From: Bryobacterales bacterium
Lineage (GTDB): Bacteria; Acidobacteriota; Terriglobia; Bryobacterales; UBA6623
Assembly (NCBI GenBank): GCA_965242705.1
Contig: OZ251486.1
Location: 64,580-128,579 of the forward strand
Length of the DNA stretch: 64,000 bases
Direction of reading: 5' to 3'
Made by a program: the position numbers and the translations under genes. Each line of letters begins with the position of its first letter. Within the stretch, counting starts at the first letter, position 1. The notes beneath the pieces are model-generated. The model had not been told where the DNA came from and ran no database searches. It saw nothing but the letters and a program-made list of their open reading frames with translations. Below, piece after piece: positions 6,948 to 38,887 of the stretch.

Positions 6948-7189
6948 GAATTTTTCCTTTTGGTCGTCTGGGGTTTGTGACGAGAGCGGTAGAGAAACAT
7001 GCCGACCGTATTCACTTTGTCGGTGATCTGCTTGACTACCGTGGTGCGAGTTATTCTATGCCCGCGTTCCGCTTGCAGGACTTCTCCGAGCAGATGGACA
7101 AATTCTTTTTTGTATCCAGGACACCGTTCCGGAACCTTCTTGAGTTCCTCAAGCAAAACCTTGATAACCTTTTTGTCGTTGTAGGCCAT
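6944..7189 (-). CDS. small basic hypothetical protein (81 aa), translationally coupled on both sides
   Basis: Internal ATG of ORF 6944..7456. Its start overlaps the helicase stop by 1 nt, and its stop overlaps the DndD-like start by 4 nt (ATGA). Confidence 0.55.
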   Translation of the reverse strand: MAYNDKKVIKVLLEELKKVPERCPGYKKEFVHLLGEVLQAERGHRITRTTVVKQITDKVNTVGMFLYRSRHKPQTTKRKNS

Positions 7190-14556: not shown

Positions 14557-14682
14557 GGAATGGTCAATCTCGGCCGATCAGCCGGCTCGACTCAGCCGGT
14601 TCGACATGGGCGGTTCGACATGGGCGGCGCTTCGCGCTATGGTCAATGCTTGGTCGGCGGCAGGCTTCAGGCATCGGGAACC
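14557..14682. promoter_or_regulatory. divergent sspB/sspA intergenic region with direct repeats (candidate operator/promoter)
   Basis: Perfect tandem ggttcgacatgggc at 14598-14611 and 14612-14625. atggtcaat occurs at 14560-14568 and 14639-14647. Near-repeat gccgg(c/t)tcgac at 14581 and 14595. Confidence 0.45.
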
Positions 14683-15875: not shown

Positions 15876-18770
15876 TCAGGGGTCGAGGCGGGCGCAGATT
15901 TCGCGGACGGCGGCGGCTGCGTCGGCCATGCGCGCCTGGAACGCCTCGAACGAATCGGCGTCCGCGGCGTTTTGGAAGAGCAGGTGCAGCTTTTCGGCAA
16001 CGGCGCCGTCCGCCGCTTCGCCGCCGATGAGGGTTTGCAGCGCGTCGATGCGCGTCCAGAGCCGCCAGGCGCCGCGGAGGCGCTCGGCGTCTTCGGCGGA
16101 GAGCGCGCCTTGCGCGGCCAGCGCCTGGAGCGCTTCGCCGTTGGCTCCGCCGGCGGGAACGTCGGCGGGTTCGCGCAGCAGCAGGTATTGGATGAGCGTT
16201 TCGACGGCGTCGAGTCCGGCGCGGCAGAGCGCCGGCGGCCCTTCGGCCGCGGCTTCGTCGAGGCGCGCGCTTGCCGCTTCGAGCGGGCGGCGGAGTTCCC
16301 GGGGGTCGAGATTTTCGGTCGAGGCGCCGCGGACGAGCGCTTCGAGGCGCGCGGCTATGCCGCTGTCTCCGGCTACGGTCCGCGCGCGGGTCAGGGCCAT
16401 GCGCCCGCGGGGGCCGGCGCTTTGGCGAAAGAAGCGATCGAAGGAGGCCAAATCGGCCGCTGCGGGTTCGCCGGTTTCGTTGCCGAGGGCGGCGGCGTCC
16501 GCCTGGTAGATGCCGCGCCGTCCGCCGAGGGCGGAGAGCACATGGGCCAGGAAGCGGTCGAACCAGTCCGCCGCGGCGAGCGGCTGGGGGCCGTCGGAGC
16601 GGGCGTCGGCGGGGGCGTCGTAGATGAGCGCGAGATCGAGGCCGGAGGCGGCGGTCAGCGCCCGGCTTGCCAGGGGGCCGACGGCGGCGAGCGCGGCGGA
16701 CGCGCCCGGAACGCGGCCGAAACGCTCGGCGAGGTCGGTTTCGGCGAGGTCGTAGAGCGCTTCGAGGGCGCAATCGGCGATGCCGCTCAGCAGGCGCGGC
16801 TCGTCCAACGGGTCGAGGCTGTGGAAGAGGAGCTGAGCGCAGACGCGAAAGCGGGCGCGGTCAACCCATTCGGCGAGGCGGTCGAGGGCGGCTTCGGAGT
16901 CGGCCGCGGCTTCGAGATGGGCGGCGAGATCGGCGGCCAGCGCGGCGCGGTCGGGCGGCGCGGCGTCGGTTTCGGGATCGACGAGGGTTTCGAGCAGGAG
17001 AGGCCGCGCCGCGAGCAGGCTGTTGACGGCGGGCGCCGAGACCATGATTTCGGCGACGCTTTCAAGCGCCTGGAGATTGGCCTGGAAGAGGGAGAGGACG
17101 GGCAGCAGGCCGTCTTGCAGTCCGTCGAAGAGGCGGTCGAAACGGGCGATGGCGCGGTCGGGGTCGGTTGTGCCGCAGACGGCGATCAGCAGGGGGGAGG
17201 TGAGCGTTTGCAGGATTTCGCGGGATGTATCGTCTTGCGCGGAGGGGCATTGCCCGTTTTGCCATTTTTCGACGATGCGCGCGGCGGCTTGCGGGTCGGC
17301 GAAGCCCATGCGCTGCAGGTGGCTCCCTTCGGCGGCGGCGGGCGATTCGTCCGCGGCGGCCGTTTTGCCCGGGAAGGGGAACTCGAAGAAGGTTTCGTAC
17401 TGCAACTCGACGCGCCGGAGGCAGGCGATGAGTTCGCGGGTGAAGGCGCCGCCGTCGGGGTAACCGAGGAAGCGCGAAAGGGTTTCGAACTCGGCGGGGT
17501 CTTTGGGCAGGGAGTGCGTTTGTTTGTCGGCCACCATCTGGACGCGGTGTTCGGCGCGGCGCAGGAAGCGGTAGGCGTCGATGAGGTCTTCGGTGGTTTC
17601 GGCGGCGACGTGGCCGGCCTTGGTGAGGGCGCGCAGCGAATCGCAGGTGGGGATGGTGCGCAGGCGGCGGTTTTTGCCGCCCCAGATCAACTGATGGACC
17701 TGGGCGAAGAATTCGATTTCGCGGATGCCGCCGCGGCCGAGCTTGAGGTTGTGGCCGGGGGCGCCGATGGTTCCGCTGCCGTGCTGGGCGTCGATGCGTT
17801 TCTTGATGTCGTGCAGGTCGCGCATGGCCGGGAAGTCGAGGTTGCGCCGCCAGACGAAGGGGGCGAGCCGCTTGAGGAAGGCTTCGGCGGCGCGGCGGTC
17901 GCCGGCGACGGGTCTGGCCTTGATCAGGGCGACGCGCTCCCAGGTTTGTCCGCGCTCGGGGTAGTAGCGCTCGGCGAACGGGGCGGCGATGACCAGGGGA
18001 GTTGAAACCGGGTCGGGGCGGAGGCGCAGATCGACGCGGAAGGCCATGCCGTCGATGGTGCGTTCGGAGAGGAAGGCGATGAACCAGCGGGCCAGGCGGA
18101 GAAAGTGTTCCTGCGCCTCACAGGATTTGCGCGCCGGGACGCGGTCGGGGTCGTAGAGGAAGATGAGGTCGATATCGGAGGAATAATTGAGTTCGCGGCC
18201 GCCGAGCTTGCCGAGGCCGAGGACGATCAGCCCCGAGCCTTCTTCCGGGTTTTCGGGGTTGGGCGGGTCGATGGCGCCGCGGTCGGCGAGCCGTTTGAGC
18301 AGCACGCGGAGGGCGGCCGAGCAGGAGGCGTCGGCGAGGCGGGAGAGCGCGCCGGTGACGGCTTCGAGCGTCCAGACTTCGGCGATATCGGCGAGGGCGA
18401 CGGCGAGCGCGGCGCGGCGGCGGGCGCGGCGCAGGGCGCGGCGGGCGGCCTCTTCGCCGGCGTCGGCGGGCAGCCCTTCGATCTCGGCGCAGATTGCTTC
18501 GATGCAGCGGTCGGGGCCTTCGGTCCAGAGCCGGCGCAGGAAGGCGGGCTCGCGGACGAGGCAGTTGCTGAGGAAAGGACTCGCGCCGAAAATGCAGGAG
18601 AGCATGGCGCGGCCGGCGGGCGATTGGGGGAGCGCTTCGGCGAAGGCGCGGTCTTCGCCGCCGTCGAGGCGCCGGGCGGCGTCGTTCCACTTGCGGAATT
18701 CGATTTCCCGCCGGTTGGCGTTGCCCGTATCGGGCCAGGCTTGCGGGTTGTCGAATGCGGCGGGATCCAT
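15876..18770 (-). CDS. glnE: bifunctional glutamine synthetase adenylyltransferase/deadenylase
   Basis: 964 aa with two nucleotidyltransferase halves. GLGKLGGRELNYSSDIDLIFLYD motif. Confidence 0.85.
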   Translation of the reverse strand: MDPAAFDNPQAWPDTGNANRREIEFRKWNDAARRLDGGEDRAFAEALPQSPAGRAMLSCIFGASPFLSNCLVREPAFLRRLWTEGPDRCIEAICAEIEGLPADAGEEAARRALRRARRRAALAVALADIAEVWTLEAVTGALSRLADASCSAALRVLLKRLADRGAIDPPNPENPEEGSGLIVLGLGKLGGRELNYSSDIDLIFLYDPDRVPARKSCEAQEHFLRLARWFIAFLSERTIDGMAFRVDLRLRPDPVSTPLVIAAPFAERYYPERGQTWERVALIKARPVAGDRRAAEAFLKRLAPFVWRRNLDFPAMRDLHDIKKRIDAQHGSGTIGAPGHNLKLGRGGIREIEFFAQVHQLIWGGKNRRLRTIPTCDSLRALTKAGHVAAETTEDLIDAYRFLRRAEHRVQMVADKQTHSLPKDPAEFETLSRFLGYPDGGAFTRELIACLRRVELQYETFFEFPFPGKTAAADESPAAAEGSHLQRMGFADPQAAARIVEKWQNGQCPSAQDDTSREILQTLTSPLLIAVCGTTDPDRAIARFDRLFDGLQDGLLPVLSLFQANLQALESVAEIMVSAPAVNSLLAARPLLLETLVDPETDAAPPDRAALAADLAAHLEAAADSEAALDRLAEWVDRARFRVCAQLLFHSLDPLDEPRLLSGIADCALEALYDLAETDLAERFGRVPGASAALAAVGPLASRALTAASGLDLALIYDAPADARSDGPQPLAAADWFDRFLAHVLSALGGRRGIYQADAAALGNETGEPAAADLASFDRFFRQSAGPRGRMALTRARTVAGDSGIAARLEALVRGASTENLDPRELRRPLEAASARLDEAAAEGPPALCRAGLDAVETLIQYLLLREPADVPAGGANGEALQALAAQGALSAEDAERLRGAWRLWTRIDALQTLIGGEAADGAVAEKLHLLFQNAADADSFEAFQARMADAAAAVREICARLDP

Positions 18771-25807: not shown

Positions 25808-27277
25808 TCAGGCGGGCGGGCGCGGTTCAGGCGGGCGGGCGGGTTTGCGCCGGAACAGGCGGTGGCCGCGGACTTCGAGGCCGGCCTGGAGCAGGAGCCT
25901 TTCCCAGTCTTTTTTGCGTCCGATGTCGGAGCGCGAGAGCAGGGCGCGCTTTTCTTCCTGGCGGGTGAGGGCGGCGAATTTCCGGTGCAGCGGATAGGTT
26001 TCGTCCACCAGGGCGTCTTTGCGGTGGAGGATGGGCGGGTTTTGGGAAAGGGAGAAATCGCGGAAGCTGTAATCGGCGTTGGGCAGCCAGACCGCGAGGG
26101 ATGAATGCAAGGCGGGGTGGGCGTCGGCGTCGAAGCGGGGATAGCGCAGGAAACTGACTTTTTTGCCGTCGGCGGAGAGTTTGAGCACGTCGTATTCGGC
26201 ATCGCCGACGATTTGGCGGGCGGCGAAGAGTTGCAGCCGGTTGAGGGCGGGAAGCTGCTCTTCGGCGGAGCCGTGGGCATAGAGAGAGCCGGCGACGAGT
26301 TTGCCCACGGGGGCGGCCTGCGCGGCGGCGGCGGCCTGCCGCGGGTCTCCGAGCGAGAACAGGAAGCGTTCGCCGTCGGCGCGGGCGGCGCGGTACGACG
26401 GCCAAAGGGCGCGGATATCGGCCTGGGTTTCGGCGGGCAGCAGCGAGGCGCGCGCGGCGGGCAGTCCGCGCAGGCGCACGGCGGCGTAATAGACCAGGAA
26501 ATTTTCGCGTTTTTGGCAGCGCAGGTTTTCGAGTTCGGCGGGGTCGAGGGCGGCGGCGGCGAGTTTGCGGATGCGCTGCGAGGAGCCGAAGCGCTCGGCG
26601 AGCGCCGCGAATTGGGGGAATTCGCCGGGGCGAGGCAAGCGGGTCAGCTTGCGGGCGAGGTCGAGGTAGGCGGCGCCGACGTCGGACGACTGGAATTCGG
26701 CGATGGTGAAGCGCCGTCCGAGAGCGGAGCGGCCGAGCGAAGCGCGGGCCAGGTATTCCCTTTCGAGCGCGGCGTCTTTGAAGACGTAGGCGATGCCGAG
26801 TCCGGCGGGCGCCGGCTTGCGTCCGCATACGGCTTCGAGGAAGGCCTGAAACTCGGCTTGGGTATAGACCTTCTGGAAGCCGCCTCCGGCGGTAACCCGG
26901 CCGTCTTCGAAGGCTTCGCCCGCGAGCGGGCCGCGGTCCACGCGCACCGCGGCCACGAGAACGCGGCGGGCGAGCGAGAACGCCTTGCGCAAGACCTGCC
27001 CGCGCTCGGCCGGGTTTTCGATGACGTTGAGGACATAGCCGAGGTTGACGACGTCGGCCTCGCGGATGGAGTCTTGCGGCCGGTAGTGCGGGTCCCAGCC
27101 GGAGGCCGCGACGCCGTTGTCGCGGAGGTAGCGGATATCGTCGCCGCGTCCGCAGCCGTAATCGAACACGCTCGCGCCCGGGCGGATCAGGCCGTGTTCC
27201 CAGGCGAGGGCGATGGGCCGCGACAGCCGGAACCGGCGCATCGCCGTGCGGAAGCGTCGAATGGTCGTCTCGGCCAT
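25808..27277 (-). CDS. SAM-dependent methyltransferase-like protein; resembles the DNA phosphorothioation-associated putative methyltransferase family
   Basis: 489 aa. Motif I VFDYGCGRGDD and VVNLGYVLNVIE, followed by a long C-terminal extension. Transcribed divergently from the dndA/dndC-like operon. Confidence 0.55.
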   Translation of the reverse strand: MAETTIRRFRTAMRRFRLSRPIALAWEHGLIRPGASVFDYGCGRGDDIRYLRDNGVAASGWDPHYRPQDSIREADVVNLGYVLNVIENPAERGQVLRKAFSLARRVLVAAVRVDRGPLAGEAFEDGRVTAGGGFQKVYTQAEFQAFLEAVCGRKPAPAGLGIAYVFKDAALEREYLARASLGRSALGRRFTIAEFQSSDVGAAYLDLARKLTRLPRPGEFPQFAALAERFGSSQRIRKLAAAALDPAELENLRCQKRENFLVYYAAVRLRGLPAARASLLPAETQADIRALWPSYRAARADGERFLFSLGDPRQAAAAAQAAPVGKLVAGSLYAHGSAEEQLPALNRLQLFAARQIVGDAEYDVLKLSADGKKVSFLRYPRFDADAHPALHSSLAVWLPNADYSFRDFSLSQNPPILHRKDALVDETYPLHRKFAALTRQEEKRALLSRSDIGRKKDWERLLLQAGLEVRGHRLFRRKPARPPEPRPPA

Positions 27278-27297: not shown

Positions 27298-27503
27298 GGG
27301 CCGCGCTTCGCGCGGCAGGGGTTAGGGGTTAGGGGGAACCGCACGGCTTCAGTGAAAAGAGAGCTGAAGCCACCCGGTCGATTTCGGCGTCGCCGCGTCG
27401 AAAATAAGTGATCATTGCCGATCATTGGCGATCATTGCTGAACATTTGCGCATGAAGCGCTTCTTTTCGGCGCATGAACCCCGTCAGACTTGACGGCGGC
27501 GCA
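27298..27503 (-). repeat. copy 3 of the ~200-bp repeat family, in the divergent promoter region of island 2
   Basis: Same blocks as copy 2. Internal 10-bp tandem gatcattgcc/gatcattggc/gatcattgct at 27410-27439. Confidence 0.85.
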
Positions 27504-27647: not shown

Positions 27648-28937
27648 ATGCTGTCGGACAAGCGGGACCGCCTCAAAGTGAGCAGCCGCAACGGCATTCG
27701 AATCGAGCGCGAAGCGGGCAATGCCGTTTACCTGGACTATGCGGCGACGACGCCCGTTGACCGCCGGGTGATCGCGGCGATGAGCCGCTGTTTGGGGATT
27801 GACGGCGTGTTCGGCAACGCGGCGTCGCGGCCGCATCGGTTCGGACAGGAAGCCCGCGAGGCTGTGGAGAAAGCGCGGGAACAGGTGGCCGCGCTGCTCA
27901 ACGCCGACCCCGCCGAGATCGTCTGGACATCGGGCGCCACTGAGTCGATCAATCTGGCGATCAAGGGCGCGGCGCATGCCCGCGCCGGGCGGGGCAGGCA
28001 TATCGTCACTTCGGGACTGGAGCACAAGGCGGTTCTGGACTCGTGCGGCCAGTTAGCCCGCGAGGGGTTCGAGGTTACCCATCTGCGCCCCGGCGCGGAC
28101 GGGCTGATTTCGCCGGAGAGCGTTGAGGAAGCCCTGCGCGACGACACGATTCTCGTTTCGCTGCTGCATGTGAATAACGAAACCGGCGCCGTTACCGACA
28201 TCGAGGCGGTCGGGGAAGTTACGCGCTCCCGCGGAATTGCCTTTCACGTGGACGCCGCCCAGAGCGCGGCGCGTTTGCCGCTCGATATGCGTTCGGTTCA
28301 GGCCGACCTGGTTTCCCTCAGCGCGCACAAGATGTACGGGCCGAAGGGCGCCGGCGCGTTGTATGCGCGGCGCAGGCCGCGCGTCCGGCTGGAGCCGCTG
28401 ATCCACGGCGGCGGCCATGAGCAGGGGCTGCGCTCGGGGACATTGGCGACCCATCAGATCGTCGGCATGGGCGAGGCCGCAAGGCTGGCGCGCGAGCGCC
28501 GCGCCCGCGACGCGGTGGCGGCCGCCGCGCTCGACCGGCGCTTGCTCGATTCGCTGCTGGGCATGGAGCGCGTTTCCCTGAACGGCAGCGCAACGCGCCG
28601 CGCGCCGGGCATCGTCAATGCCGCCTTCGCCTGCGTCAAGAGCGAATCGCTGATGATGGTGTTGAAGGATGTTGCCGTTTCCTCCGGCTCGGCCTGCACA
28701 TCGTCGCGCATCGAGCCGTCGCACGTCTTGCAGGCGCTGGGCGTCCCCGGCGATCTTGCGGCTTGTTCGATCCGTTTCAGCCTGGGGCGCTTCACGACCG
28801 CACAGGAAATCGACTTCGCCGCGCGGCGCGTGCGGGAATCCGTCGAAGCCCTGCGCGAATTGTCGCCGCAATGGCAGGCGCCGGCGGGGCGCGGCGCGGA
28901 AACGGGTTTTCGGCATGAACAGGCGGTGACGGCATGA
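27648..28937 (+). CDS. dndA: class V cysteine desulfurase, DndA/IscS-like
   Basis: Internal ATG of ORF 27474..28937. [32 protein letters not shown] and SSGSACTS. Stop overlaps the dndC-like start (ATGA). Confidence 0.75.
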
Positions 28938-30124
28938 GCGAAGGCCTCGTTTCAATAGGCGTTGCGGGCGGGGCCGCGCGCGCCGCCAAGCGCATCCGCG
29001 ACACGGTGGATGTTCTGCGCACGGAATACCTGCGCGAAAATTTCGAGCCGTGGGTGTTGGCCTATTCGGGCGGCAAGGATTCGACGCTGCTGCTGCAACT
29101 GACTTGGGAGATGCTGCTCGATCTGCCCGACCCCGAACGCCGCCGCGAGATCTTTGTGGTCGGCAACGATACGCTCGTCGAATCGCCGCTGGTAATCCGC
29201 CATCTCAAAACCACGCTGAAGGCGATCGACGAGGCCGCCGCGTTGGACCGGCTGCCCATCGAGACGCGAATCACCAAGCCGCATATCGATCAGACTTTCT
29301 GGGTCAACGTGATCGGGCGCGGCTACATCCCGCCGACACGCAATTTCCGCTGGTGTACCGACCGGATGAAAATCATCCCCACGGGCGGGCTGCTGAAAAC
29401 GCTGGTGCGCCGGCACAAGAGCGCCGTGCTGCTGGTCGGGACGCGCAAGAGCGAGTCGCAGAACCGGCGCCGCAACATGGCCAAACACGGCGCTTCGGCA
29501 ACCGCGATGAACCCGCACGGCTCCATCGAAGGATGCCGCATGTTCGCGCCTCTGGCCGAGTTCGAAGACGATGACGTCTGGTTGACCCTGATGCAGCGCG
29601 ACCCGCCTTGGGGCGGCTCGCACGACGCCTTGATTACGCTGTACCGCAACGCCGGCGGCGGCGAATGTCCGCTGGTGCTGACCAAAGACGACGCGCCTTC
29701 GTGCGGGACGACCTCGCCCCGTTTCGGCTGCTGGACGTGTACCGTGATCAACAAAGACCGCAGCTTGCGCGGGTTGATCGACTCCGGGCACGAGGACGCG
29801 GAAATGTTCGAGCGGCTTTTCGATTTCCGCGAGTGGCTGATCGAGTTGCGCGAAAACGACGCCAACCGCAGCCGCGTCCGGCGCGACGGCAACACGTGGT
29901 ATCGAGCCGACGGCAGCTTGGTTATGGGGCCGTTCACGCTCGACGTGCGGCAACGGATACTCGACCGCCTGCATGCGCTGGAAAAAGAACTGGGGGAGAA
30001 GCTGATTTCCGCCTCAGAGTTGGAAGTGATCGATGACATCTGGTATAGGGATCGGATTCAGGAAGATTGCCGCATGGCCTTTCAGAATTCATATGCACTA
30101 GCAGATGAAGGAGCACTGACTTGA
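28934..30124 (+). CDS. dndC: DndC-like PAPS-reductase-fold sulfurtransferase
   Basis: 396 aa. [20 protein letters not shown]-loop, [10 protein letters not shown], and the DndC-type cysteine block [10 protein letters not shown]. Confidence 0.75.
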
Positions 30125-30126
30125 AA

Positions 30127-31911
30127 ATGCCCCGTCGTACCGTCATTGAGGCCAAGGCAACATTGTTCTCAGACCTGTTCCATCAGGGAAGGTTCTCTGT
30201 TCCCTGGCATCAGCGTTACTATGATTGGAAAGCAGAGGATGTCCAGGCGTTACTCTACGATATCGACGAAGCGGTTAAAGAAGACCGTGATTGCTATTTT
30301 CTGGGTGCGATCATGTTAGTGGAGGCCGGTAATGGATTGTGGGAAATCAACGACGGTCAACAGCGAATGGTGACGATATCGTTGATTTGCGCATCACTAT
30401 GCCGACGATTTGCACATAGCGCAGGCGGTTCGCAACGCGAAGGCCTTGCGCTGCGCATGTTATTCGATCTGGATGACAAAGAGACATGGATACTGGATAA
30501 TGCTGAAAATTATCCTCCCCGGATTTCTCCCCCGAGAAACGACGGAACACGGTATCGACAAATGATTCGAGGCAACACAATTGGAACCAATGGAATGCTC
30601 AATTCAGCGTGGGAAGAAATTGAAAAATTCTTTTCCCCGATGAGTATGGAAATGTTGGAAGAATATTTTGATTTTATTCTCGGAAAACTCGAAGTTGCGT
30701 GTTTGTATGTGCCGCGTCGAATTGATCCGAACGCGGTTTATGAAACAATCAATTCCCGGGGAAAGCAACTCGACGACTTGGATCGGATTCGCAATTTTCT
30801 ATACTCCTACTTCAATGCGGCCGAAGACTCCGAGAAGAGAATTTCGCTGCATGAAGACCTAGAGAGAATTCGTTTCCTGATTCGGAATACAGAGAAGGCG
30901 TCCGAATACATGCGCTGCCACTTGCAATGCAGGTACGGCTTTCTCCGCAAGGATAATTTCTATCGCGACGTGAGGGATGCTGTCCGCATCCAGAGAGATA
31001 AAAAATACGATTCAAATGATTCCCCAGCAGATTACGCATTCATACTGACCAAACAAATTGCACAGCCCGAGTCTCTGGATCTCTTCCGCACAATGACGGC
31101 AACAAATCCGAATCCGGAGTTCATCCGGGCATTCGAGACTGCTTCAGGAACAAGTAAATCACCGAGAAGTTTGGCGGTTTTTATTAGGGAGTTGCAAAGA
31201 TACAAAGTCACTCAACCTTTGGTTTTTGCCATCTTGACTCGATACATCCGCGAGCCGGATAAACGTAGAAAAAAAGCGGTTGCGAGACTGGCTAACAAAA
31301 ACTTGAATCGCTTGGCGACATTTGTTCTCAGAACAGCATTTGTTGCACCAAAGTTCGAGCCGTCGCACTTCGAGACCGAGTTTTCCAATTACGCCAAAAA
31401 TATCATGAGCGCCACCGAATTTCCCGATGATGAATTCGCCACCTTCTTGAGGGAGTGCGACCGGTCGGAGTATGGGATATTGGATGATTCCAGATTCCAA
31501 GATGCCATGATCGAAGCAAGAATGACAGGAGATAGAAAGATAAAGCAGTTCTTGCTCGGCATCAACAGCATCCGGCAACGCGACGTACGGTTATTGAACC
31601 AGCGCTTTTGTACTATCGAGCATATCCTTCCGAAATCCCCACAACATTGGGGCGGCTGGATCGGATTCAAAGATGTTGACGGGACCGATTGGTTTCAGAG
31701 AATTGGAAACCTGACACTCATGGGGCCGGAAGACAATAAACCGGGTGATAAGTACAACGCTTCTTTTGCGAAGAAACGCGCGAGCTATGGGGAGAGCAGT
31801 CTTGCTATTACGCGGGAGTTGAAAGATTATGATGATTGGACTCCAGCCCGCATTGAATCAAGGCAACGGGATATGGTGAAACGAGCAACGATTGTCTGGA
31901 AGTTCGTTTGA
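30127..31911 (+). CDS. DUF262-DUF1524 (GmrSD/SspE-family) protein: ParB-like NTPase N-domain plus His-Me nuclease C-domain
   Basis: About 594 aa. N-terminal WHQRYYDW and INDGQQRMVT (DGQQR). C-terminal IEHILPKSP...IGNLTLMGPEDNKPGDK. The ATG lies 2 nt after the dndC-like stop; the ORF track starts at TTG 30121. Confidence 0.8.
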   Translation: MPRRTVIEAKATLFSDLFHQGRFSVPWHQRYYDWKAEDVQALLYDIDEAVKEDRDCYFLGAIMLVEAGNGLWEINDGQQRMVTISLICASLCRRFAHSAGGSQREGLALRMLFDLDDKETWILDNAENYPPRISPPRNDGTRYRQMIRGNTIGTNGMLNSAWEEIEKFFSPMSMEMLEEYFDFILGKLEVACLYVPRRIDPNAVYETINSRGKQLDDLDRIRNFLYSYFNAAEDSEKRISLHEDLERIRFLIRNTEKASEYMRCHLQCRYGFLRKDNFYRDVRDAVRIQRDKKYDSNDSPADYAFILTKQIAQPESLDLFRTMTATNPNPEFIRAFETASGTSKSPRSLAVFIRELQRYKVTQPLVFAILTRYIREPDKRRKKAVARLANKNLNRLATFVLRTAFVAPKFEPSHFETEFSNYAKNIMSATEFPDDEFATFLRECDRSEYGILDDSRFQDAMIEARMTGDRKIKQFLLGINSIRQRDVRLLNQRFCTIEHILPKSPQHWGGWIGFKDVDGTDWFQRIGNLTLMGPEDNKPGDKYNASFAKKRASYGESSLAITRELKDYDDWTPARIESRQRDMVKRATIVWKFV

Positions 31912-33329
31912 TACCTGATGCAGCAGAACTGCGGCGTCTCGCCGAAGAACAGCTTGGCGTTCCGGCGACGCTCCACGACTATCAATGGGAAGGGGTTGCA
32001 TTCCTGTATCGATCCCCGGCTGCTCTGCTTGCCGATGAGATGGGCTTGGGGAAAACCGTCCAGACTGCGACCGCGCTGGCGCTTCTTTTGAACGGGCGGA
32101 ATGAAATACGCCGGGTTTTGATCGTCGCCCCGGCGTCTCTGACGACAAACTGGATGGCGGAGCTTGAAACCTGGGCGCCGTCGCTGACTGTGCGGCGCGT
32201 TCAGGGAACCGTACGCGATCGGGAAGCGTTTTATCTGCTGCCGATTCCGGTTCTCGTGAGCTCCTACGAGCAGATTCGGCAAGACGGCCTGGACCGTATC
32301 CCGTCGGGCGCCTTCGATCTCGTCGTGCTCGATGAAGCTCAGCGAATCAAAAACAGAGACTCCACTACCGCGTTGGCCTGCCGGCTGCTGCCGCGGAAGC
32401 GCGCTTGGGCGCTATCGGCTACGCCCCTGGAAAACGACGAGGCCGATGCCGCATCGATTCTCGGATTCCTCGACCCATCGATCCGACGAGAGCTTTCCGG
32501 GACGCACCTAGTCAGGAAGTTGGAGTCGATGATGCTTCGGCGGCGGAAGGCCGATGTTCGAGCCGAACTGCCGCCAGTTATCCTTCAGGACATGAAACTC
32601 GACCTCTCGAAGCCGCAGAGGGAGAAATACGATGAGTTGTGGTTGAACCGGGCGGCGACCGTCCGGGCAAACGCAGGTGACGGAGACGCCAGCACCGCCT
32701 TGCTCGGGATGATCACGCGGCTGAAGATCATTTGCAATCTCGATGCGTCCGCGAACGCCTCGTCGAAATTGGCCGCCCTCAGGACAGTCAGCGAGAGTGC
32801 GGGGAAATTTGCTCGAATTCTTGTTTTTTCGCAGTTTGTTGAAACGCTGCGGTGGATTTCTGCTAGAATTGGTCTGGCGCACGATCTCGTGACAGGGTCG
32901 ATGCCGCTTGCCGAACGGCAGGCGTCCATGGACCGGTTCAAGAGCGGGCGGGCTCCGCGGTTGTTGCTGGTGTCCCTTCGGGCTGGCGGCGTGGGGTTGA
33001 ATCTGGGAGAGGCGACGCATATCGTGATGTTCGATAGATGGTGGAACCCCGCCGTTGAGATCCAGGCAATCTATCGAGCCCACCGCTTTGAACGCGATGA
33101 GCCGTTGCACGTCGTTCGTTTTCTGGTGACCGATTCGATTGAGGAACATATCGCGGAGATACTGGAACGGAAGGAGTATCTTTTCGATAAAGTCATTGAG
33201 TCCGCTCAGACGACTGCCCCCCGGTTCACAAAGAACGAGTTGATGCGGGTTCTGAATCTCTCGGTAGGAGACATCCTTCCGATCCCAAACGAAGTTAAGG
33301 AGACCCAAAACCATGGCAAAGATTGTTGA
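31908..33329 (+). CDS. minimal SNF2-family helicase/translocase
   Basis: 473 aa. LADEMGLGKTVQ (I), LVVLDEAQRIKN (II), ALSATPLEN (III) and GGVGLNLGEATHIVMFDRWWNPAVEIQAIYRAHR (V-VI). TTG start overlaps the upstream stop. Confidence 0.85.
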   Translation: MIPDAAELRRLAEEQLGVPATLHDYQWEGVAFLYRSPAALLADEMGLGKTVQTATALALLLNGRNEIRRVLIVAPASLTTNWMAELETWAPSLTVRRVQGTVRDREAFYLLPIPVLVSSYEQIRQDGLDRIPSGAFDLVVLDEAQRIKNRDSTTALACRLLPRKRAWALSATPLENDEADAASILGFLDPSIRRELSGTHLVRKLESMMLRRRKADVRAELPPVILQDMKLDLSKPQREKYDELWLNRAATVRANAGDGDASTALLGMITRLKIICNLDASANASSKLAALRTVSESAGKFARILVFSQFVETLRWISARIGLAHDLVTGSMPLAERQASMDRFKSGRAPRLLLVSLRAGGVGLNLGEATHIVMFDRWWNPAVEIQAIYRAHRFERDEPLHVVRFLVTDSIEEHIAEILERKEYLFDKVIESAQTTAPRFTKNELMRVLNLSVGDILPIPNEVKETQNHGKDC

Positions 33330-34158
33330 ATACAAGGATATTCCGCTTGATGATTTGACGATCGGCAAGGGGCAAGTGCGCACTCAGGATGCCAGCAAAG
33401 GTATTGATGATCTGGCCAGAAGCATTGAGGCGCAAGGCTTGCTTCAACCGATTGTCGTCTGCCCTGCAAGCGAAACCGGAAAATGGGAAATTCTCACGGG
33501 TCAGCGACGGTTTTTGGCGCATAAGATGCTGAACAAAGAAAGCATCGCAGCAGCCGTTCTCGATGAGCGCGCTGAGGAAGCCGAGGCCAAGGCTATCTCG
33601 ATTACCGAAAATCTGATTCGACGCAAACTCTCCGGGAAAGACCTTACGGACGCAATCGTGTTCCTGTACAACATTTATGGGACCATTAAGGGTGTGACTG
33701 AAGCCACGGGATTGCCTTATCGGGAAGTACGGCATCACGTAAGATATCCGCGACTGTTGCCCGAATTGAAAGAAATGGTCAATGACGGCAGGCTCGATGT
33801 CAATGTTGCGGTAAAGGCGCAGGATGCCGCTACCGCAGGGGATTATGGGGATCCCGATCCCGAGGTCGCAATTAACGCAATTAAATTTGCCGAAGAAATG
33901 ACTTCAATGACGGGGCCTCAACGCAAGAAGCTTGCCGAAGAACGCAAAAAGGACCCTGAAAAACCGGTGGATGATGCGATCGAAGCTGCGAAATCCGGGG
34001 GGAAGATAACCCAGATAGTCGCGACAGTGACTCAGGACACGCACACTGCCGTCCGACGTTTTGCAAAGCAGGAAGGGGCCACCCAGGACGAGGCAGCGGT
34101 TATGCTCATTGAAGAAGCGCTGGTCAATCACGGTTTGCTGAATTCCGAGATACCATAG
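33313..34158 (+). CDS. ParB/Srx N-terminal domain protein
   Basis: 281 aa. QGLLQPIVV (box II), ILTGQRRFLA (GxxRxxA-type box) and ITENLIRR. Overlaps the SNF2 gene by 17 nt. Confidence 0.8.
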   Translation: MAKIVEYKDIPLDDLTIGKGQVRTQDASKGIDDLARSIEAQGLLQPIVVCPASETGKWEILTGQRRFLAHKMLNKESIAAAVLDERAEEAEAKAISITENLIRRKLSGKDLTDAIVFLYNIYGTIKGVTEATGLPYREVRHHVRYPRLLPELKEMVNDGRLDVNVAVKAQDAATAGDYGDPDPEVAINAIKFAEEMTSMTGPQRKKLAEERKKDPEKPVDDAIEAAKSGGKITQIVATVTQDTHTAVRRFAKQEGATQDEAAVMLIEEALVNHGLLNSEIP

Positions 34159-34884
34159 ATGCTGGCTGGTTTGAACCCTCTGGAACTTGGACGTCTGCGG
34201 ATGTCCGTGGGCTATGGGAGGCACAAGAGAGGCCGTCCGCTTTCTCCTATTGAGGTCGGTTTGCTGTTCGATCAAGCCCGCAGGGCCGGCGACTCGCTCA
34301 GGGATTGCGCACAGGCGGTTCAGCTTGACGGAACAAGACAAATCGCTCGGTTTTTGCGAATTGTCGAATTACCCCAAGACATTCAGCATTTGATTGGTTG
34401 GGGAACCCCCAAGGGTGCCATCGGCTTTTCGGCGGCGTTCGAGTTGGCGCGCCTCCAAGATGAGAAAGATCAGCGCACTACTGCCGAAGCGGTGCTGAAA
34501 AATGGTTTGGACAGCAAAGAAGTCCGACAAGTCGTGCAGCTTCGGGCACGGTCGGGGCAGGCTATTGATGCGTGCGTTCAGGAAGTCTTGGGCATGCGTC
34601 CGGTGATCGAGAAACGCTATGTCTTTATTGGGTCAATCGTTGATGGGAACATCGGGGAAATACTCGGCAAACTCAGACAAGCAGAGAGAGATTCGATTCT
34701 GAAGTCGTGTATCGAAAGCCTTGAACTTCGAGGAGCATCGGGACGGCTGGGCGAACGGTTTTTCACGCTGGTAGGAGACGAACGTTTTAACTCATCAATG
34801 AACAGTATCGGCAAAGAGAATATCGAGAACCAGCTTCGAGATCATATTGAGAAGGTTATTGCGAATGTCGGATATCGTTGTTGA
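34159..34884 (+). CDS. hypothetical protein resembling the HTH/central region of ParB without the N-terminal ParB box
   Basis: 241 aa. LSPIEVGLLF...LRIVELPQDIQHLI...GFSAAFELARL follows the ParB HTH-region spacing. ATG immediately follows the upstream TAG. Confidence 0.4.
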   Translation: MLAGLNPLELGRLRMSVGYGRHKRGRPLSPIEVGLLFDQARRAGDSLRDCAQAVQLDGTRQIARFLRIVELPQDIQHLIGWGTPKGAIGFSAAFELARLQDEKDQRTTAEAVLKNGLDSKEVRQVVQLRARSGQAIDACVQEVLGMRPVIEKRYVFIGSIVDGNIGEILGKLRQAERDSILKSCIESLELRGASGRLGERFFTLVGDERFNSSMNSIGKENIENQLRDHIEKVIANVGYRC

Positions 34885-35893
34885 TGTTTTTGCAAGCGGC
34901 GCCGTCCGCCTCGGTTCGCAAGTCGTGTGCGATGGTTTTGCCGATGGATATCCTCTCCGTGTCCAGACGCATATCCACGCCGACCACATGGCCGATTTCG
35001 ACAGAAGCAAGGGTTTTCAAGATATCCTGATGAGTCCGGAAACCCATGAACTTCTGATTGCGGAACGCAATGCGGACCTTGAGTACCGCGACAACCTCCT
35101 GCGGGTCGGGCGCGGCGACGAGCGAATGCTTGAAGACGGCTCAAAGCTCTTCTTCCTGCCGTCCAATCACATGCTTGGCTCGCGCCAAGTTGCGCTGGAA
35201 TTACCTGACGGCCGGCGAATCGGCTATTCGAGCGACTTCGGATGGCCTCTTGATGAGGTCATCAAGGTCGATCAGCTTGTCGTGGACAGCACTTACGGCA
35301 GCCCCCGAAGCGTCCGCCGCTACACTCAGGCCGAGGCGGAAGAATGCCTGTTCGATCTCGTATGCGAGCGATTGCGGCATGGCCCCGTGCATGTCTGCGC
35401 TTACAGGGGAACGATTGAGCGAGTTTTGCAAGTACTCGGGGACAATGTAGGGGTTCCGATTCTGGCTACCGAGCGGCTCATGCGCGAAGTAGGGGTTTAT
35501 CAAAAGTACGGGTTCGCCGCCGGGAGCCTGGATAAAATCGATTCGGACAAAGGCTTGGCGGCCATGAAGGAGAGGTCGTATGTTCGGCTGTATTCGAAGG
35601 GTGACGGGTTTGGCAACGAACCGATCGGCGGAACCCGCATTACTTGCAGCGCGTTCATGGTGGATGCGGATCATCCATTGAAGACCTATTCGGACCGAAC
35701 ATACAGCGTGGCGTTATCCAATCACGCGGACTTCGATGAAACGCTGGCGTATGTTCAGGCCACCGGCGCCAAACGGGTGGTTACAGACAACACACGGACC
35801 TACGGCGTAGAGTTGGCCATCGCCATCAACAACCGTTTTGCGGGCGTTCAGGCCGAGCCTTCCACAAACAAACCCGGCCCGCGCTGGAATTAG
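34865..35893 (+). CDS. metallo-beta-lactamase-fold hydrolase (possible nuclease)
   Basis: About 342 aa from ATG 34865 (the ORF track starts at TTG 34847). HxHxDH motif VQTHIHADHM and a later SNHAD. Overlaps the upstream gene by 20 nt. Confidence 0.7.
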   Translation: MSDIVVDVFASGAVRLGSQVVCDGFADGYPLRVQTHIHADHMADFDRSKGFQDILMSPETHELLIAERNADLEYRDNLLRVGRGDERMLEDGSKLFFLPSNHMLGSRQVALELPDGRRIGYSSDFGWPLDEVIKVDQLVVDSTYGSPRSVRRYTQAEAEECLFDLVCERLRHGPVHVCAYRGTIERVLQVLGDNVGVPILATERLMREVGVYQKYGFAAGSLDKIDSDKGLAAMKERSYVRLYSKGDGFGNEPIGGTRITCSAFMVDADHPLKTYSDRTYSVALSNHADFDETLAYVQATGAKRVVTDNTRTYGVELAIAINNRFAGVQAEPSTNKPGPRWN

Positions 35894-36058: not shown

Positions 36059-38887
36059 ATGAGAGTTACGGCTTGGGTTCGTTTCTTTTTCGGTTCGGCT
36101 GCGGTCTTTTTCGGTTCGGCTGCGGCGGCTTGGGCGCAGACGCCGTTGACTGCGGAGGGCGTGGTTTCGTTCCGCGTGCGCTTCGGGCTTACCGATAGCG
36201 CGCAGACGTCATGGGACGGCGCGGTTACCGTTTCCAACGGCGAGCTGCTCGGGCTGCGCGATTGGCGTCCGCGTCCCGAGAACGCCGTCGAGGCGCCGAA
36301 CAAGTGGCGGTTTTCGACGCTCAAGGGCGTGAATTACCGGTATCCGGCGTACTACATCATTCCCAACACGGGGGTTGTGGAGTACTACTGGACTCCCGGG
36401 GTGATCGTCGACGTGAAGGCGGAGGCCGGGACGCGGGTCAACGTGCGCACCGACCAGGGGCGGTTTTCGTTCAACGCGAGGGACATTCCTCTGGCCGCGC
36501 CGAAGACGTTTCTGGACGGCGGCGCCGTCGTGGAGCGGGTTGCGCCGGCGGAGAAGCTGACAGGAGAGGAGTACGAGGACGATTTCGCGGCGATTCTGGG
36601 CGGCGAAGACGGCGAGATATGGGTTGCCTGGATTGCCTACAAGGCGGGGGCGAACCACGTGCTGGCGCGGCGGTTCGACGGCGCCGAGTGGGGCGGGGCG
36701 ATGGAAATCACCGAGGGGCCGAGCGACGCCTATCTGGTGAAGATGGGGCGGGACAAGGGCGGCGACCCGTGGTTCGTCTGGGCGAACCAGACGGGCGGCA
36801 ATTTCGATCTCTACGGGCGGGCGCTGAAGGGCGGCTCGCTGACGCCCGTTGTGCGCCTGAGCGACAGTCCCCAGCCCGACGCCTTTCACAACTTGGCGAC
36901 GGACTCGAACGGCGGCCTGTGGCTTGTCTGGCAGGGGTTCCGCGGCGGCAAGTCGGACATTTTCGCGCGGCGTTACGACGGCGGGCGCTGGGGGGACGCG
37001 CAGAAGGTTTCGACTTCGCCGGCGAACGATTGGGAGCCGGTCATCGCCGCCGGGCGCAGGGGAGAGATTCATGTCGCCTGGGACAGTTACGACAAGGGCG
37101 ATTACGACGTGCTGCTGCGCACCTGGGACGGGGCGAAGTGGGGCGAGGTCGAGGCGATCGCCGGCACGAGGCTTTACGAAGCCCACGTTTCGCTGCAGGT
37201 GGATGGGGAGAACCGGTTGTGGGCGGCGTGGAACGAGAGCGGCATGAACTGGGGCAAGGACACGGGGGCGCTGCTCAGCGTGGAAGGCACGCGGCTCTAC
37301 CATTACCGGCGCATGCGGGTCGCGGCGCGGGACGGCCGCGGGGGCTGGCGGGTTCCGGTTGCGGACATCAACGATTCGCTGCCGGCGCATATGGACGACC
37401 GGCACAACGATTTTCCGCAGCTTGCGCTGGACGGGCGGGGGAGGGTGTGGCTTTTCGGGCGCTACCGCACGATTCGGCAGCGCGACATGCCCGACGAGAC
37501 GCCGCTGCACCGCGCCTGTTGGGAGATTTGGGGTTCGACGCTGGACGGCGATCGCTGGACGGTTCCGCTGGAGTTGCCGTTCAGCCAGAGCCGCCAGGAC
37601 GTGCGCTGGGGCGTCGCGCCGGACGGCAAGGGCAATCTGTTTGCCGCGTGGGCGATGGACAACCGCGATTTCGAGGATTTTCTGTACACGCATGAGGACG
37701 TGTACGCGGCGAAGCTGCCCAATCTGGAGCGGAAGACCGCGGCGCCGGTGCTGAGGGCGCGCGCGGAGCCAACGCTGTACTACCACGACCTGGCGCCCAC
37801 CGAGACCGCCGATCTGGAGCGGCTGCGGACGTATGAGATTCGTTCCGGCGGCAAGGTTTACAAGATTTACCGCGGCGACACGCACCGGCACACCGAGTTT
37901 TCGATGGACGGCAACAACGACGGCTCGCTGCTGCAAACCTACCGCTATGCGATCGACGCGGCAGGCCTCGACTATTTGCTGGCCAGCGAGCACAACCACT
38001 TGGGCGGCCCGGACAACGAATACGTCAACTGGCTGCTGCAGCAGACGGTGGACGTGTTTTCGGTGTCGGGGGCGTTCCAGCCGTATTACGGGTACGAGCG
38101 CTCGATCAGCTTTCCCGACGGGCACAGGAATATCCTGTTCGCCAAGCGGGGCAACCCGACGCTGCCCATGGCGCCGGAAGAGCGCAACCACGAGAAGGGC
38201 GCGGGGCGGCTTTACGATTACCTGAAGAAGCACAAGGGCATCGCCATTTCGCACACGCCGGCGACGCGCATGGGCACGGACTGGCGGGACAACGACCCGG
38301 ACGTGGAGCCGCTGGTGGAGATTTTTCAGGGCGATCGCGTTTCCGCCGAATACGAAGGCGCGCCGCTGGCGGCGAACAGCGAGAATCCGGCGTCGCAGGT
38401 GGGCGGCTTCCAGCCGGCGGGCTACGTGTGGAACGCTTGGGCGAAGGGATACAAGCTGGGCGTGCAGGCGGCTTCGGATCACCTTTCGACGCACTATTCT
38501 TACGCCTGCACGATAGCGGAGGAGTTTACCCGCGAAGGCATGATCGAGGCCATGAAGCGCCGCCACAGTTACGGCGCGACGGACAACATCATCCTCGATT
38601 ACCGGCTGCGCACCGCCGACGGGAAGGAGTATCTGCAGGGCGATATCGTCACGGTCGAGGGCGGGTTCACGCTGGCGGTCAAGGTGATCGGCACGACGCA
38701 TCTGCGCCAGATCGACATCATCAAGAACCAGGAGTTTTTGCACAACCGGCAGAATCTCGCGCAGGAGACGAGTTTCGATTTCACTGACAACGACAAGCAG
38801 CCGGGCGAGGATTTCTATTACGTGCGCGTGGTGCAGGACGACAACAACGTAGCTTGGTCGTCGCCGATCTGGGTCACGACGCGGTGA
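36059..38887 (+). CDS. large secreted protein with a C-terminal PHP/CehA-McbA-type metallohydrolase-like domain
   Basis: Internal ATG of ORF 35918..38887 gives the signal peptide MRVTAWVRFFFGSAAVFFGSAAAAWAQ. W/G-rich repeats in the N-terminal half. GDTHRHTEFS and LASEHNH metal motifs. Confidence 0.55.
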   Translation: MRVTAWVRFFFGSAAVFFGSAAAAWAQTPLTAEGVVSFRVRFGLTDSAQTSWDGAVTVSNGELLGLRDWRPRPENAVEAPNKWRFSTLKGVNYRYPAYYIIPNTGVVEYYWTPGVIVDVKAEAGTRVNVRTDQGRFSFNARDIPLAAPKTFLDGGAVVERVAPAEKLTGEEYEDDFAAILGGEDGEIWVAWIAYKAGANHVLARRFDGAEWGGAMEITEGPSDAYLVKMGRDKGGDPWFVWANQTGGNFDLYGRALKGGSLTPVVRLSDSPQPDAFHNLATDSNGGLWLVWQGFRGGKSDIFARRYDGGRWGDAQKVSTSPANDWEPVIAAGRRGEIHVAWDSYDKGDYDVLLRTWDGAKWGEVEAIAGTRLYEAHVSLQVDGENRLWAAWNESGMNWGKDTGALLSVEGTRLYHYRRMRVAARDGRGGWRVPVADINDSLPAHMDDRHNDFPQLALDGRGRVWLFGRYRTIRQRDMPDETPLHRACWEIWGSTLDGDRWTVPLELPFSQSRQDVRWGVAPDGKGNLFAAWAMDNRDFEDFLYTHEDVYAAKLPNLERKTAAPVLRARAEPTLYYHDLAPTETADLERLRTYEIRSGGKVYKIYRGDTHRHTEFSMDGNNDGSLLQTYRYAIDAAGLDYLLASEHNHLGGPDNEYVNWLLQQTVDVFSVSGAFQPYYGYERSISFPDGHRNILFAKRGNPTLPMAPEERNHEKGAGRLYDYLKKHKGIAISHTPATRMGTDWRDNDPDVEPLVEIFQGDRVSAEYEGAPLAANSENPASQVGGFQPAGYVWNAWAKGYKLGVQAASDHLSTHYSYACTIAEEFTREGMIEAMKRRHSYGATDNIILDYRLRTADGKEYLQGDIVTVEGGFTLAVKVIGTTHLRQIDIIKNQEFLHNRQNLAQETSFDFTDNDKQPGEDFYYVRVVQDDNNVAWSSPIWVTTR

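Follow-up and report, generated by a model that had tools for sequence, protein, structure and literature searches.

Here we describe a cassette of seven genes in a Bryobacterales bacterium (assembly GCA_965242705.1, contig OZ251486.1), at positions 27648-35893 of the 64,000-nt stretch of DNA that was analysed (the window, whose numbering is used throughout). We interpret the cassette, with moderate confidence, as a restriction-modification-like defence locus based on DNA phosphorothioate (PT) and made up of two modules, with an accessory arm that would consist of a motor and a nuclease. The seven open reading frames (ORFs), G1 to G7, are intact and all lie on the forward strand:

27648-28937, forward strand: G1, cysteine desulfurase of the IscS/DndA/SspA type, dependent on pyridoxal phosphate, presumed sulfur donor (Aminotran_5, IscS model, PADLOC)
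28934-30124, forward strand: G2, short DndC of 396 aa, PP-loop ATP pyrophosphatase/sulfurtransferase, presumed PT writer (TIGR03183, PADLOC DndC)
30127-31911 (alternative TTG start at 30121), forward strand: G3, DUF262 (NTPase of the ParB superfamily) joined to DUF1524 (HNH), of the DndI/SspE/GmrSD type, presumed PT-sensing nickase (Pfam, PADLOC, PDB)
31908-33329 (TTG start), forward strand: G4, SNF2 ATPase/translocase of 473 aa that consists of the helicase core alone (Pfam)
33313-34158, forward strand: G5, ParB-family protein with an intact nucleotide-binding N-terminal domain (Pfam, TIGR00180)
34159-34884, forward strand: G6, ParB paralogue that lacks the N-terminal NTPase domain and has a ParB-type helix-turn-helix (HTH) and a C-terminal alpha/beta domain (HTH_ParB, AlphaFold2, Foldseek)
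34865-35893, forward strand: G7, compact beta-CASP nuclease of the metallo-beta-lactamase (MBL) fold, SNM1/Apollo-like in size (TIGR04122, AlphaFold2, Foldseek)

Each of these genes abuts or overlaps the next. G1 and G2 share an ATGA overlap; the TGA of G2 is followed after 2 nt by the ATG of G3 at 30127, or overlaps it as TTGA if G3 starts at TTG 30121; G3 and G4 overlap as TTGA, with G4 starting at TTG 31908; G4 and G5 overlap by 17 nt; the ATG of G6 (34159) directly follows the TAG of G5; and G6 and G7 overlap by 20 nt. Promoter-like matches inside the cassette number 4, against 3.2 in shuffled sequence, and terminator-like matches 11, against 10.5, none of them above the shuffled expectation, and the same is true of repeats inside the cassette. 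A single transcription unit for G1-G7 is the simplest reading. An initial annotation, made from the sequence alone, had listed these junctions and proposed one tightly packed unit, and both points are borne out by the ORF listing, by the direct reading of the junctions and by the promoter and terminator counts. Its seven family assignments also hold, every protein having a family or fold match in Pfam, NCBIfam, PADLOC or Foldseek.

Relatives of the short DndC were found in up to 567 genomes in a scan of one genome per species, and the best 80 (DndC identity 60-81%) were analysed. Together with the window these give 81 loci, which were tabulated by tblastn and are cited below by L numbers. G3 adjoins or follows the short DndC in 76 of them and G1 lies upstream of it in 62. 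After this core of desulfurase, DndC and DUF262/HNH genes, the loci differ as follows:

44 of 81 loci, window included: the full SNF2-ParB-HTH-MBL set
27 of 81 loci: a DndB-like (DGQHR) protein, preceded in 24 by a small GIY-YIG protein
2 of 81 loci (L008, L059): a DndD-like ATPase and a DndE-FtsK fusion
1 of 81 loci (L060): Pbe genes
2 of 81 loci: a partial form of the four-gene set
5 of 81 loci: nothing recognisable

The full cassettes span at least nine phyla; the groups that carry them, by record titles, are Acidobacteriota, Latescibacterota, Gammaproteobacteria, Dadabacteria, Thermodesulfobacteriota, Rhodothermales, Chloroflexota, Binatia and Gemmatimonadota. Contig look-ups of two DndC homologues gave the same seven genes in the same order, once in a Bryobacterales metagenome-assembled genome (MAG) with flanks as in the window and once, in an unrelated context, in a MAG named as Bacteroidetes (Rhodothermaceae in the matching record, L017); the seven proteins are 54-82% identical between the window and these two contigs. 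Reverse searches that started from relatives of G6 or G7 landed in complete cassettes in four of four cases, one a metagenome match and three contig look-ups; the metagenome scan used a single G6 sequence with strict exact patterns and returned one locus. Because the order is the same in 44 of the 81 loci and across at least nine phyla, and because all four reverse searches agree, the association of the seven genes is not due to chance. The possibility raised initially, that it might be unique to this genome, can thus be set aside. As a detail of the second layout, in L025 (12888-14524) the core is followed by a GIY-YIG protein of about 100 aa and a DndB-like DGQHR protein of 423 aa.

The locus consists of a near-constant core of IscS, DndC and DUF262/HNH (G1-G3, module A) and an exchangeable module of four genes (G4-G7, module B), which is inherited together as a unit and re-assorted. 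We conclude this because pairwise protein distances, computed among 43 cassettes, fall into two blocks, because in L055 and L075 the whole of module B lies upstream of the core in inverted orientation, and because other modules replace it in the loci listed above. The distances correlate at rho 0.69-0.80 within G1, G2 and G3 (0.77 for G3 against G2) and at 0.65-0.80 within G4, G5, G6 and G7, compared with 0.27-0.52 between the two blocks. The fastest evolving proteins are G3 (mean pairwise distance 0.52) and G6 (0.48). Where the initial annotation saw a single seven-gene system, distances, inversions and replacements therefore indicate a three-gene core with a swappable four-gene module. Module B depends on the core: it lies beside it in 44 of 44 occurrences, the four reverse searches all ended in complete cassettes, and no relative of G7 was found in the 72,556 plasmids of PLSDB or in IMG/VR.

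Base composition is uneven along the cassette. G+C content is about 66% in the window, 68% in G1, 62% in G2 and 47-58% from G3 onward, and G+C at third codon positions (GC3) is 0.82, 0.79, 0.52, 0.67, 0.55, 0.54 and 0.66 from G1 to G7. Uneven GC3 was also seen in the cassettes of L001/L005/L006, L035, L047, L058, L050 and L071. The step in GC3 falls between G2 and G3, but the distance correlations place the module boundary between G3 and G4.

Between the window and L001 the cassette proteins are 74-82% identical, against 89% for the neighbouring DUF3604 gene. The cassette is often lower in G+C than its host, and its sites are unrelated chromosomal contexts in different genomes. This combination of higher divergence than the flanks, lower G+C and varied contexts amounts to defence-like evolution. 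In the MAG named as Bacteroidetes (L002-L004) a complete MR_MLE gene flanks the cassette on one side and a short fragment, MR_MLE_C, on the other (5969-7033, 17147-17509), an arrangement that suggests insertion with partial duplication of the target. No tRNA gene, a candidate integration site, was found in the window. Close relatives of the DndC were likewise absent from PLSDB and IMG/VR, the best plasmid DndC being 51% identical and lying in a DndD/E context. Distant DndC-like PP-loop proteins (<60% identity) occur on about 2,500 plasmids in PLSDB, most of which are conjugative and many of which come from Enterobacteriaceae, and conjugative plasmids of Streptomyces encode a DndC of 476 aa near an HNH gene and with no Dnd partners (L089).

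The sulfur-handling pair, G1 and G2, points to a PT writer. G1 matches Pfam Aminotran_5 (8.9e-82) and scores 555 bits with the NCBIfam IscS model NF010611 (cut-off 548); its PADLOC matches are SspA (2.6e-154) and DndA (6.2e-152), and with the DndA equivalog TIGR03235 it scores 405.6, under the cut-off of 480. Dnd systems use DndA or IscS as desulfurase, and G1 is of this kind. G2 matches Pfam PAPS_reduct and the NCBIfam DndC model TIGR03183 (328.9 bits, cut-off 290.4), the match running over model positions 10-365 of 447, with the C-terminal part absent. In PADLOC it is a DndC (6.3e-111), with weaker matches to SspD (1.6e-6) and BrxP (1.1e-11), and its CysD and NcsA scores are weak. As in DndC sulfurtransferases, the PP-loop (SGGKDS) and the cysteines are present; SGGKDS and Cys141, 201, 245, 257, 266 and 269, which include the RFGCWTC block, are invariant in 81 of 81 sequences of the G2 family. 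These two blocks had been singled out as diagnostic when G2 was first called DndC-like. The call is sound, since G2 exceeds the DndC equivalog cut-off, and the reservation made at the time, that G2 might be another subfamily of phosphoadenosine phosphosulfate (PAPS) reductases, is answered by the same score and by the weakness of CysD and NcsA. The DndC equivalog, the desulfurase and the invariant PP-loop and cysteines support the identification of G1 and G2 as a putative writer.

We also considered G2 as a truncated DndC pseudogene left by an insertion. The 120 homologues listed, of 6223 found at E <= 1e-10 with canonical DndC included, are 65-99% identical and all 372-432 aa long. As they share this length, G2 is not a truncation and the candidate was rejected. 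An exact-sequence look-up of the G2 of the window gave no record, and searches of the PDB with the single sequence and with the family profile gave no solved PP-loop, DndC or TdpC relative.

G3 resembles the nucleases that read PT. It matches Pfam GmrSD_N (8.7e-22) and GmrSD_C (1e-21) and, over its full length, the PADLOC profiles HEC-06 (9.8e-64) and Orf5 (7.5e-47), the latter presumably the DndI/orf5 family model. Its nearest PDB sequences are 9JFL (Salmonella DndI, 1.3e-8) and then SspE (4.9e-5). The N-terminal DUF262 DGQQR motif, found in 71-72 of 72 family members, and the C-terminal DUF1524 HNH, with its E-H, G-N and N residues conserved, are both kept, as in DndI and SspE. These two are experimentally shown PT-sensing NTPase-nickases that are paired with a PT writer; DndI is a DUF262-HNH protein of 596 aa whose ATPase is stimulated by PT-DNA and which nicks unmodified DNA (PMC11662687). 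The profiles, the nearest solved structures and the conserved motifs support the identification of G3 as a probable reader. The initial annotation had suggested that the operon carries a reader set of its own; the DUF262-DUF1524 protein is there, but it groups with the characterised DndI and SspE and is not a reader of an unknown kind.

The enzymes of module B all look active, judging from their intact motifs. G4 matches SNF2-rel_dom (7.1e-46) and Helicase_C (6.6e-20), its best PADLOC matches are the helicase cores of DpdE (9.6e-60) and ZorD (3e-58), and its motifs I (GLGKT), II (DEAQ), III and VI do not vary among all 44 sequences. G5 matches ParB_N (1.1e-14) and TIGR00180 parB_part (68.2 bits, cut-off 58.45), and all 45 sequences keep GQRR (box II) and TENLxR (box III) unchanged; from these motifs, nucleotide binding and clamp behaviour are predicted. 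ParB, Noc and KorB proteins, which are CTP-dependent DNA clamps, combine an N-terminal domain, with GxxRxxA and ENLxR, and an HTH. Here the N-terminal domain is in G5 and G6 supplies only the HTH, by fold. A ribbon-helix-helix at the C-terminus of G5, as in DndE, was considered and dropped, as a PDB search with the family profile gave it no support. G6 has a weak match to Pfam HTH_ParB (3.2e-5). In Foldseek the top 20 matches of its AlphaFold2 model (mean predicted local distance difference test, pLDDT, 88.9) are all DNA-binding regions of ParB, Noc or Spo0J, with probability 1.0 and a target TM-score of up to 0.85. The G6 family comprises 531 clusters, and those listed are all about 240 aa long. 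G7 has a weak match to Pfam Lactamase_B_2, and it matches TIGR04122 (ligase-associated exonuclease, 2.9e-14) and, in the PDB, the sequence of SNM1A (7e-4). Its AlphaFold2 model (pLDDT 86.6) retrieves SNM1A, CPSF73, RNase J, Artemis and Apollo in Foldseek at about 1e-16 to 1e-14 with probability 1.0. All 45 sequences share HxHxDH, H102, D124, D141 and H287 without change. MBL motifs 1-4, beta-CASP motifs A-C and the fold of the insert are all present, a fold that is compatible with DNA or RNA as substrate. PADLOC has no model for G6 or G7.

Upstream of G1, and divergent from it, lies a further gene associated with PT:

25808-27277, reverse strand: TIGR04096 'DNA phosphorothioation-associated putative methyltransferase' (NCBIfam 9.5e-125, 417 bits, cut-off 150)

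Eight other loci have a homologue of this gene next to a full cassette, variously arranged (L001/L005/L006, L055, L058, L062, L075, L091), and in L060 one stands beside an IscS-DndC-GmrSD core that carries a Pbe module instead of module B. This PT context supports our interpretation of the cassette, and we regard the TIGR04096 gene as a facultative eighth part of it. No function of the family has been characterised to our knowledge. Its members accompany the cassette in several phyla, and L091 (2154-4181) has a longer form, of 675 aa. Between the TIGR04096 gene and G1 the window has three tandem copies of GATCATTG at a spacing of 10 nt (27410-27437), and related Bryobacterales loci have another short tandem repeat (TGTAAACTGTAAACTG) at the same intergenic place. 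These repeats are possible operator sites.

We propose that module A is a self-contained pair of writer and reader. G1 would take sulfur from cysteine and hand it as a persulfide to the short DndC, which would activate the phosphate of the host DNA backbone and exchange a non-bridging oxygen for sulfur, without DndD or DndE. A PP-loop writer that works without DndD/E has a precedent, since tdpC alone is enough for PT synthesis according to the part of PMC12914056 that cites An et al. 2025. G3 would then scan DNA by means of its DUF262 NTPase, release PT-marked self DNA and, like DndI and SspE, use its HNH domain to nick DNA that is unmarked. Module B would be an accessory, ATP-driven restriction arm, in which G5, of the NTP-binding clamp type, and G6 would bind or load on DNA, the SNF2 motor G4 would translocate along it and G7 would degrade it, probably enlarging the nicks made by G3 into lethal damage. 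It would thus be a split analogue of the helicase-nuclease restriction parts PbeA, TIGR04095 and DndFGH. The ParB pair may, additionally or instead, fill a regulatory role like that of DndB. Every one of these steps, PT formation included, we infer from characterised families.

The window also holds a second PT-related cluster, at 2885-15858, which lies about 12 kb (from the end of sspA) to 25 kb upstream of the cassette:

14704-15858 (start approximate), forward strand: SspA (PADLOC SspA 9.2e-126)
13609-14556, reverse strand: SspB, DUF4007 (Pfam 8.2e-80)
10211-13609, reverse strand: SspC (PADLOC E = 0)
9372-10214, reverse strand: SspD (PADLOC 4.2e-135)
7189-9384, reverse strand: PbeA (PADLOC 4.3e-193)
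within 6944-7456: possible small PbeB
4833-6947, reverse strand: PbeC, DndD-like (PADLOC 4.1e-49)
4374-4823: ORF of 149 aa
2885-4363, reverse strand: DndB-like DGQHR protein (Pfam DndB 5.4e-26)

This combination of an SspABCD writer, Pbe-type restriction and a DndB-like gene is itself unusual. G+C content falls to 52-55% at 3-8 kb of the window. A link between the cassette and the Ssp-Pbe genes as a general feature was considered and rejected: Ssp genes were near none of 84 other loci and Pbe genes near one (L060), and for this reason we treat the cluster as a separate system. The initial annotation had noted the lack of dndB, dndD and dndE. For the operon this stands, as no relative of DndD or DndE was detected in the cassette by PADLOC, by NCBIfam or by tblastn searches that used the DndD-like and DndE proteins of two plasmids as queries. 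It does not extend to the window, in which a DndB-like gene and the DndD-like PbeC, the only DndD-like gene of the window, belong to the second cluster (2.9-9.4 kb), and the statement is accordingly limited to the operon and not to the genome. Downstream of the cassette, the signal-peptide region of the DUF3604 gene contains a perfect 21-nt tandem duplication (36084-36125; FFGSAAV/FFGSAAA in the protein). In L091 (12088-12969, reverse strand) and L092 (7848-8744, reverse strand) a 'phosphorothioated DNA-binding restriction endonuclease', with a sulfur-binding domain and HNH (NF045808, 1.4e-91), lies directly downstream of the cassette. A PT-dependent nuclease beside a presumed PT writer implies differing sequence specificities or a conflict between PT systems.

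Several observations weigh against a self-contained PT locus with an accessory arm. The cassette lacks a partner of the DndD/E, SspB/C or BrxC type for DNA targeting or ATP hydrolysis, and another cassette protein may be needed for writing; help in trans from the Ssp system of the window or from PbeC is also conceivable. The nearest outgroup DndCs (51% and 44% identity), on plasmids, are short too, yet they lie beside DndD-like and DndE genes, so that the short length of DndC is not in itself evidence of independence from DndD/E. A third of the relatives are without module B, which implies that module B is not essential to the core and could be independent of PT. In G3, His28 aligns in HMMER with the PT-sensing Tyr25 of DndI (Tyr30 in SspE); the position is His in 69 of 72 family members and Tyr in 2 of 72, and is preceded by an invariant Trp. 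The PT-sensing tyrosine of the N-terminal hydrophobic pocket is thus missing from G3, which does not exclude the function, and because of this replacement PT sensing by G3 is not established. Finally, PT, restriction and the interactions between the proteins are predicted from comparisons of sequence and structure.

One way to accommodate the lack of DndD and DndE in the operon would be to assign module B to the writer, the SNF2 protein and the ParB and ParB-HTH proteins replacing the ATPase DndD and the DNA binder DndE and bringing DndC to the DNA, and G3, G7 or both carrying out restriction. In two loci and in the outgroup plasmids, DndC is followed by a DndD-like ATPase together with DndE or a DndE-FtsK fusion. 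The ParB proteins can be likened to the ParB-like DpdB, which DpdA requires for the insertion of 7-deazaguanine; DpdE gives the best match to G4 in PADLOC, and Dpd modifies DNA with a ParB-like ATPase (PMC12839542). Pairings of PP-loop and ParB-family proteins recur, as in DndC and DndB. However, the short DndC persists without SNF2 and ParB, because 27 of the 81 loci have the core with only a DndB-like protein (24 with GIY-YIG) and five have nothing recognisable, and the distance correlations indicate that module B has a history partly independent of DndC. On balance we consider a role of module B in writing unlikely.

The two modules could also be independent neighbours, module A being a PT writer and reader and module B a PT-independent SNF2/ParB/nuclease system, as in defence islands. 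The modules do re-assort, module B can be inverted (L055, L075), other modules fill the same slot, and the window is rich in defence genes, with its separate Ssp-Pbe cluster. However, G3 and G4 overlap by 4 nt with no promoter or terminator signal between them, module B was never away from the core in the 44 loci and the four reverse look-ups, and G7 searches of PLSDB and IMG/VR found it in neither collection. We find this independence distinctly doubtful, and retain the interpretation of module B as an accessory arm of the PT locus.

A further alternative exchanges the roles of the parts: G3 would be the DNA-handling NTPase-nickase partner of the writer, in place of DndD or of SspB and SspC, and the downstream module, with beta-CASP, GIY-YIG or Pbe/FtsK, would restrict. 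Besides IscS, G3 is the sole protein that is nearly always found with the short DndC (76 of 81 loci; rho 0.77), every common downstream module has a nuclease or motor of its own, and G3 does not keep the Tyr with which DndI and SspE sense PT. Against this, the characterised relatives of G3 (DndI, SspE, GmrSD/BrxU) are all restriction effectors (PMC11662687; PMC12839542). L039 clearly keeps DndC after loss of G3, as L077, L051 and L068 possibly do, and loss of the nuclease with the modifier kept is the usual path of decay in restriction-modification. G3 is also the fastest evolving protein, which is typical of a component that faces invaders. A writing role for G3 thus appears very unlikely, and we continue to regard it as the probable reader. 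That the cassette is not a defence locus at all, the PAPS-reductase-like protein serving sulfur metabolism or RNA thiolation or the ParB, SNF2 and nuclease proteins maintaining an integrated mobile element, is hardly credible: PP-loop enzymes thiolate tRNA too, ParB proteins usually partition replicons and L091 has an integrase about 4 kb upstream, but G2 reaches the DndC equivalog threshold with CysD and NcsA weak, no replication, relaxase or ParA genes are present, and the cassette is flanked by ordinary chromosomal genes, different ones in different genomes, is missing from the plasmid and viral collections and has nucleases and PT-associated genes as its neighbours.

Many of the MAGs carry sponge-associated names (Poriferihabitaceae, Porisulfidus, Azotimanducaceae, Palauibacter) and others have sample labels from sponge studies in their record titles; sponge genome notes and microbiome papers use these taxon names. 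By record titles, MAGs of lineages that are typically found in marine sponge (and coral) microbiomes make up most of the best 80 (loci L005-L084). That DndC is 60-81% identical in members of at least nine phyla suggests a recent horizontal spread in the sponge habitat. Horn et al. reported that DNA phosphorothioation genes are enriched in sponge metagenomes 'even though not functionally complete' (PMC5099237). A cassette that lacks DndD/E would fit this remark and may explain the 'incomplete' PT genes of sponges. More speculatively, the cassette could represent a fifth PT route, in which a ParB NTP-gated clamp and SNF2 would deliver the short DndC to DNA in place of DndD/E, the effectors being a DndI-like reader and a beta-CASP exonuclease, and which would have swept as a mobile cassette through the microbiomes of marine sponges in at least nine phyla. 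We put this forward tentatively, as a possibility that we think somewhat unlikely; if true, it would explain the enrichment of sponge metagenomes in 'incomplete' Dnd systems.

The cassette is common, with relatives of its short DndC in up to 567 species-level genomes and about half of the best 80 carrying it in full, and it is strongly conserved with every catalytic motif intact and without the partners thought necessary for DndC. It would offer a compact test case for how DndC finds DNA without DndD/E, for the role of a ParB clamp and an SNF2 motor in modification-based defence, and for the use of a beta-CASP nuclease in immunity. Views of backbone targeting and reading have shifted with each new PT-writing system so far, and current defence annotation tools miss this cassette.

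The PT-writing systems established so far are Dnd, Ssp, Tdp and BREX type 4. Because it is without DndD/E and without SspB/C, the cassette falls outside canonical Dnd, in which DndD and DndE occur in the same cluster, and outside Ssp, in which SspB, SspC and SspD do. The IscS-DndBCDE-DndI system of Salmonella enterica Cerro 87 (PMC11662687) likewise combines a desulfurase and DndC with a DUF262(DGQQR)-DUF1524(HNH) protein of about 595 aa. In contrast to it, the cassette has no DndB, DndD or DndE, Tyr25 of DndI is His in G3, and the SNF2-ParB-HTH-beta-CASP module is added. Compared with the NCBIfam DndC models, G2 is about 100 residues shorter at its C-terminus. SspABCD-SspE follows the same logic, a desulfurase and a PP-loop enzyme writing PT and a DUF262-DUF1524 protein reading it, and G3 matches SspE weakly, but G2 is a DndC (6e-111) and not an SspD (1.6e-6), and SspB (DUF4007) and SspC are lacking; the true SspBCD genes of the window are those at 9372-14556, on the other strand. 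In the summary of TdpABC given in PMC12914056, TdpC is a single PP-loop writer with no DndD/E-type partners, the precedent named above for the writing proposed for G2, while the restriction parts, TdpAB, differ from those of the cassette. BREX type 4 (BrxP/BrxC/PglZ/BrxL) places a PT-writing enzyme of the PAPS-reductase family within a non-Dnd defence system; G2 has only the weak BrxP match, and no cassette protein matches BrxC, PglZ or BrxL.

In the DndC neighbourhoods described by the Dedon laboratory, a cluster in Sulfurimonas sp. also joins DndC to DUF262 without dndD, and it was flagged, unnamed, as a possible new PT system (PMC12914056). That account gives it a P-loop NTPase, apparently DUF3696, and does not mention SNF2, ParB or an MBL nuclease. 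The reappraisal of Dnd was anchored on DndD and DndE (PMC10853773), and neither it nor the BREX survey (PMC12839542) describes the layout of the cassette. We found no description of it in the open-access text of the PT and defence literature, and one may exist elsewhere. PADLOC gives the architecture no name. The initial statement that no named system has this architecture thus agrees with both, and the cassette is uncharacterised in the open-access literature.

Outside the PT-writing systems, Dpd (DpdA/B/C with DpdE) is a modification-based defence that likewise pairs a ParB-like NTPase with SNF2-type helicases (PMC12839542). The cassette differs in having no genes for tRNA-guanine transglycosylase or preQ0, the likeness of G4 to DpdE is that of a generic helicase core, and the DpdA, DpdB and DpdC models of PADLOC and NCBIfam match none of the seven proteins or their DUF3604 neighbour. 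PbeABCD, TIGR04095 ('DNA phosphorothioation system restriction enzyme') and DndFGH are also PT-linked arms that combine a helicase or translocase, a nuclease and DNA binding. Compared with these, the motor of the cassette is a core-only SNF2 protein, its nuclease is a separate beta-CASP protein where theirs is a fused phospholipase D or restriction endonuclease domain, and its DNA binders are of the ParB family where theirs are DndE or ribbon-helix-helix proteins with a CxC ABC ATPase. In L060 the Pbe genes occupy the very slot that module B fills in the full cassettes.

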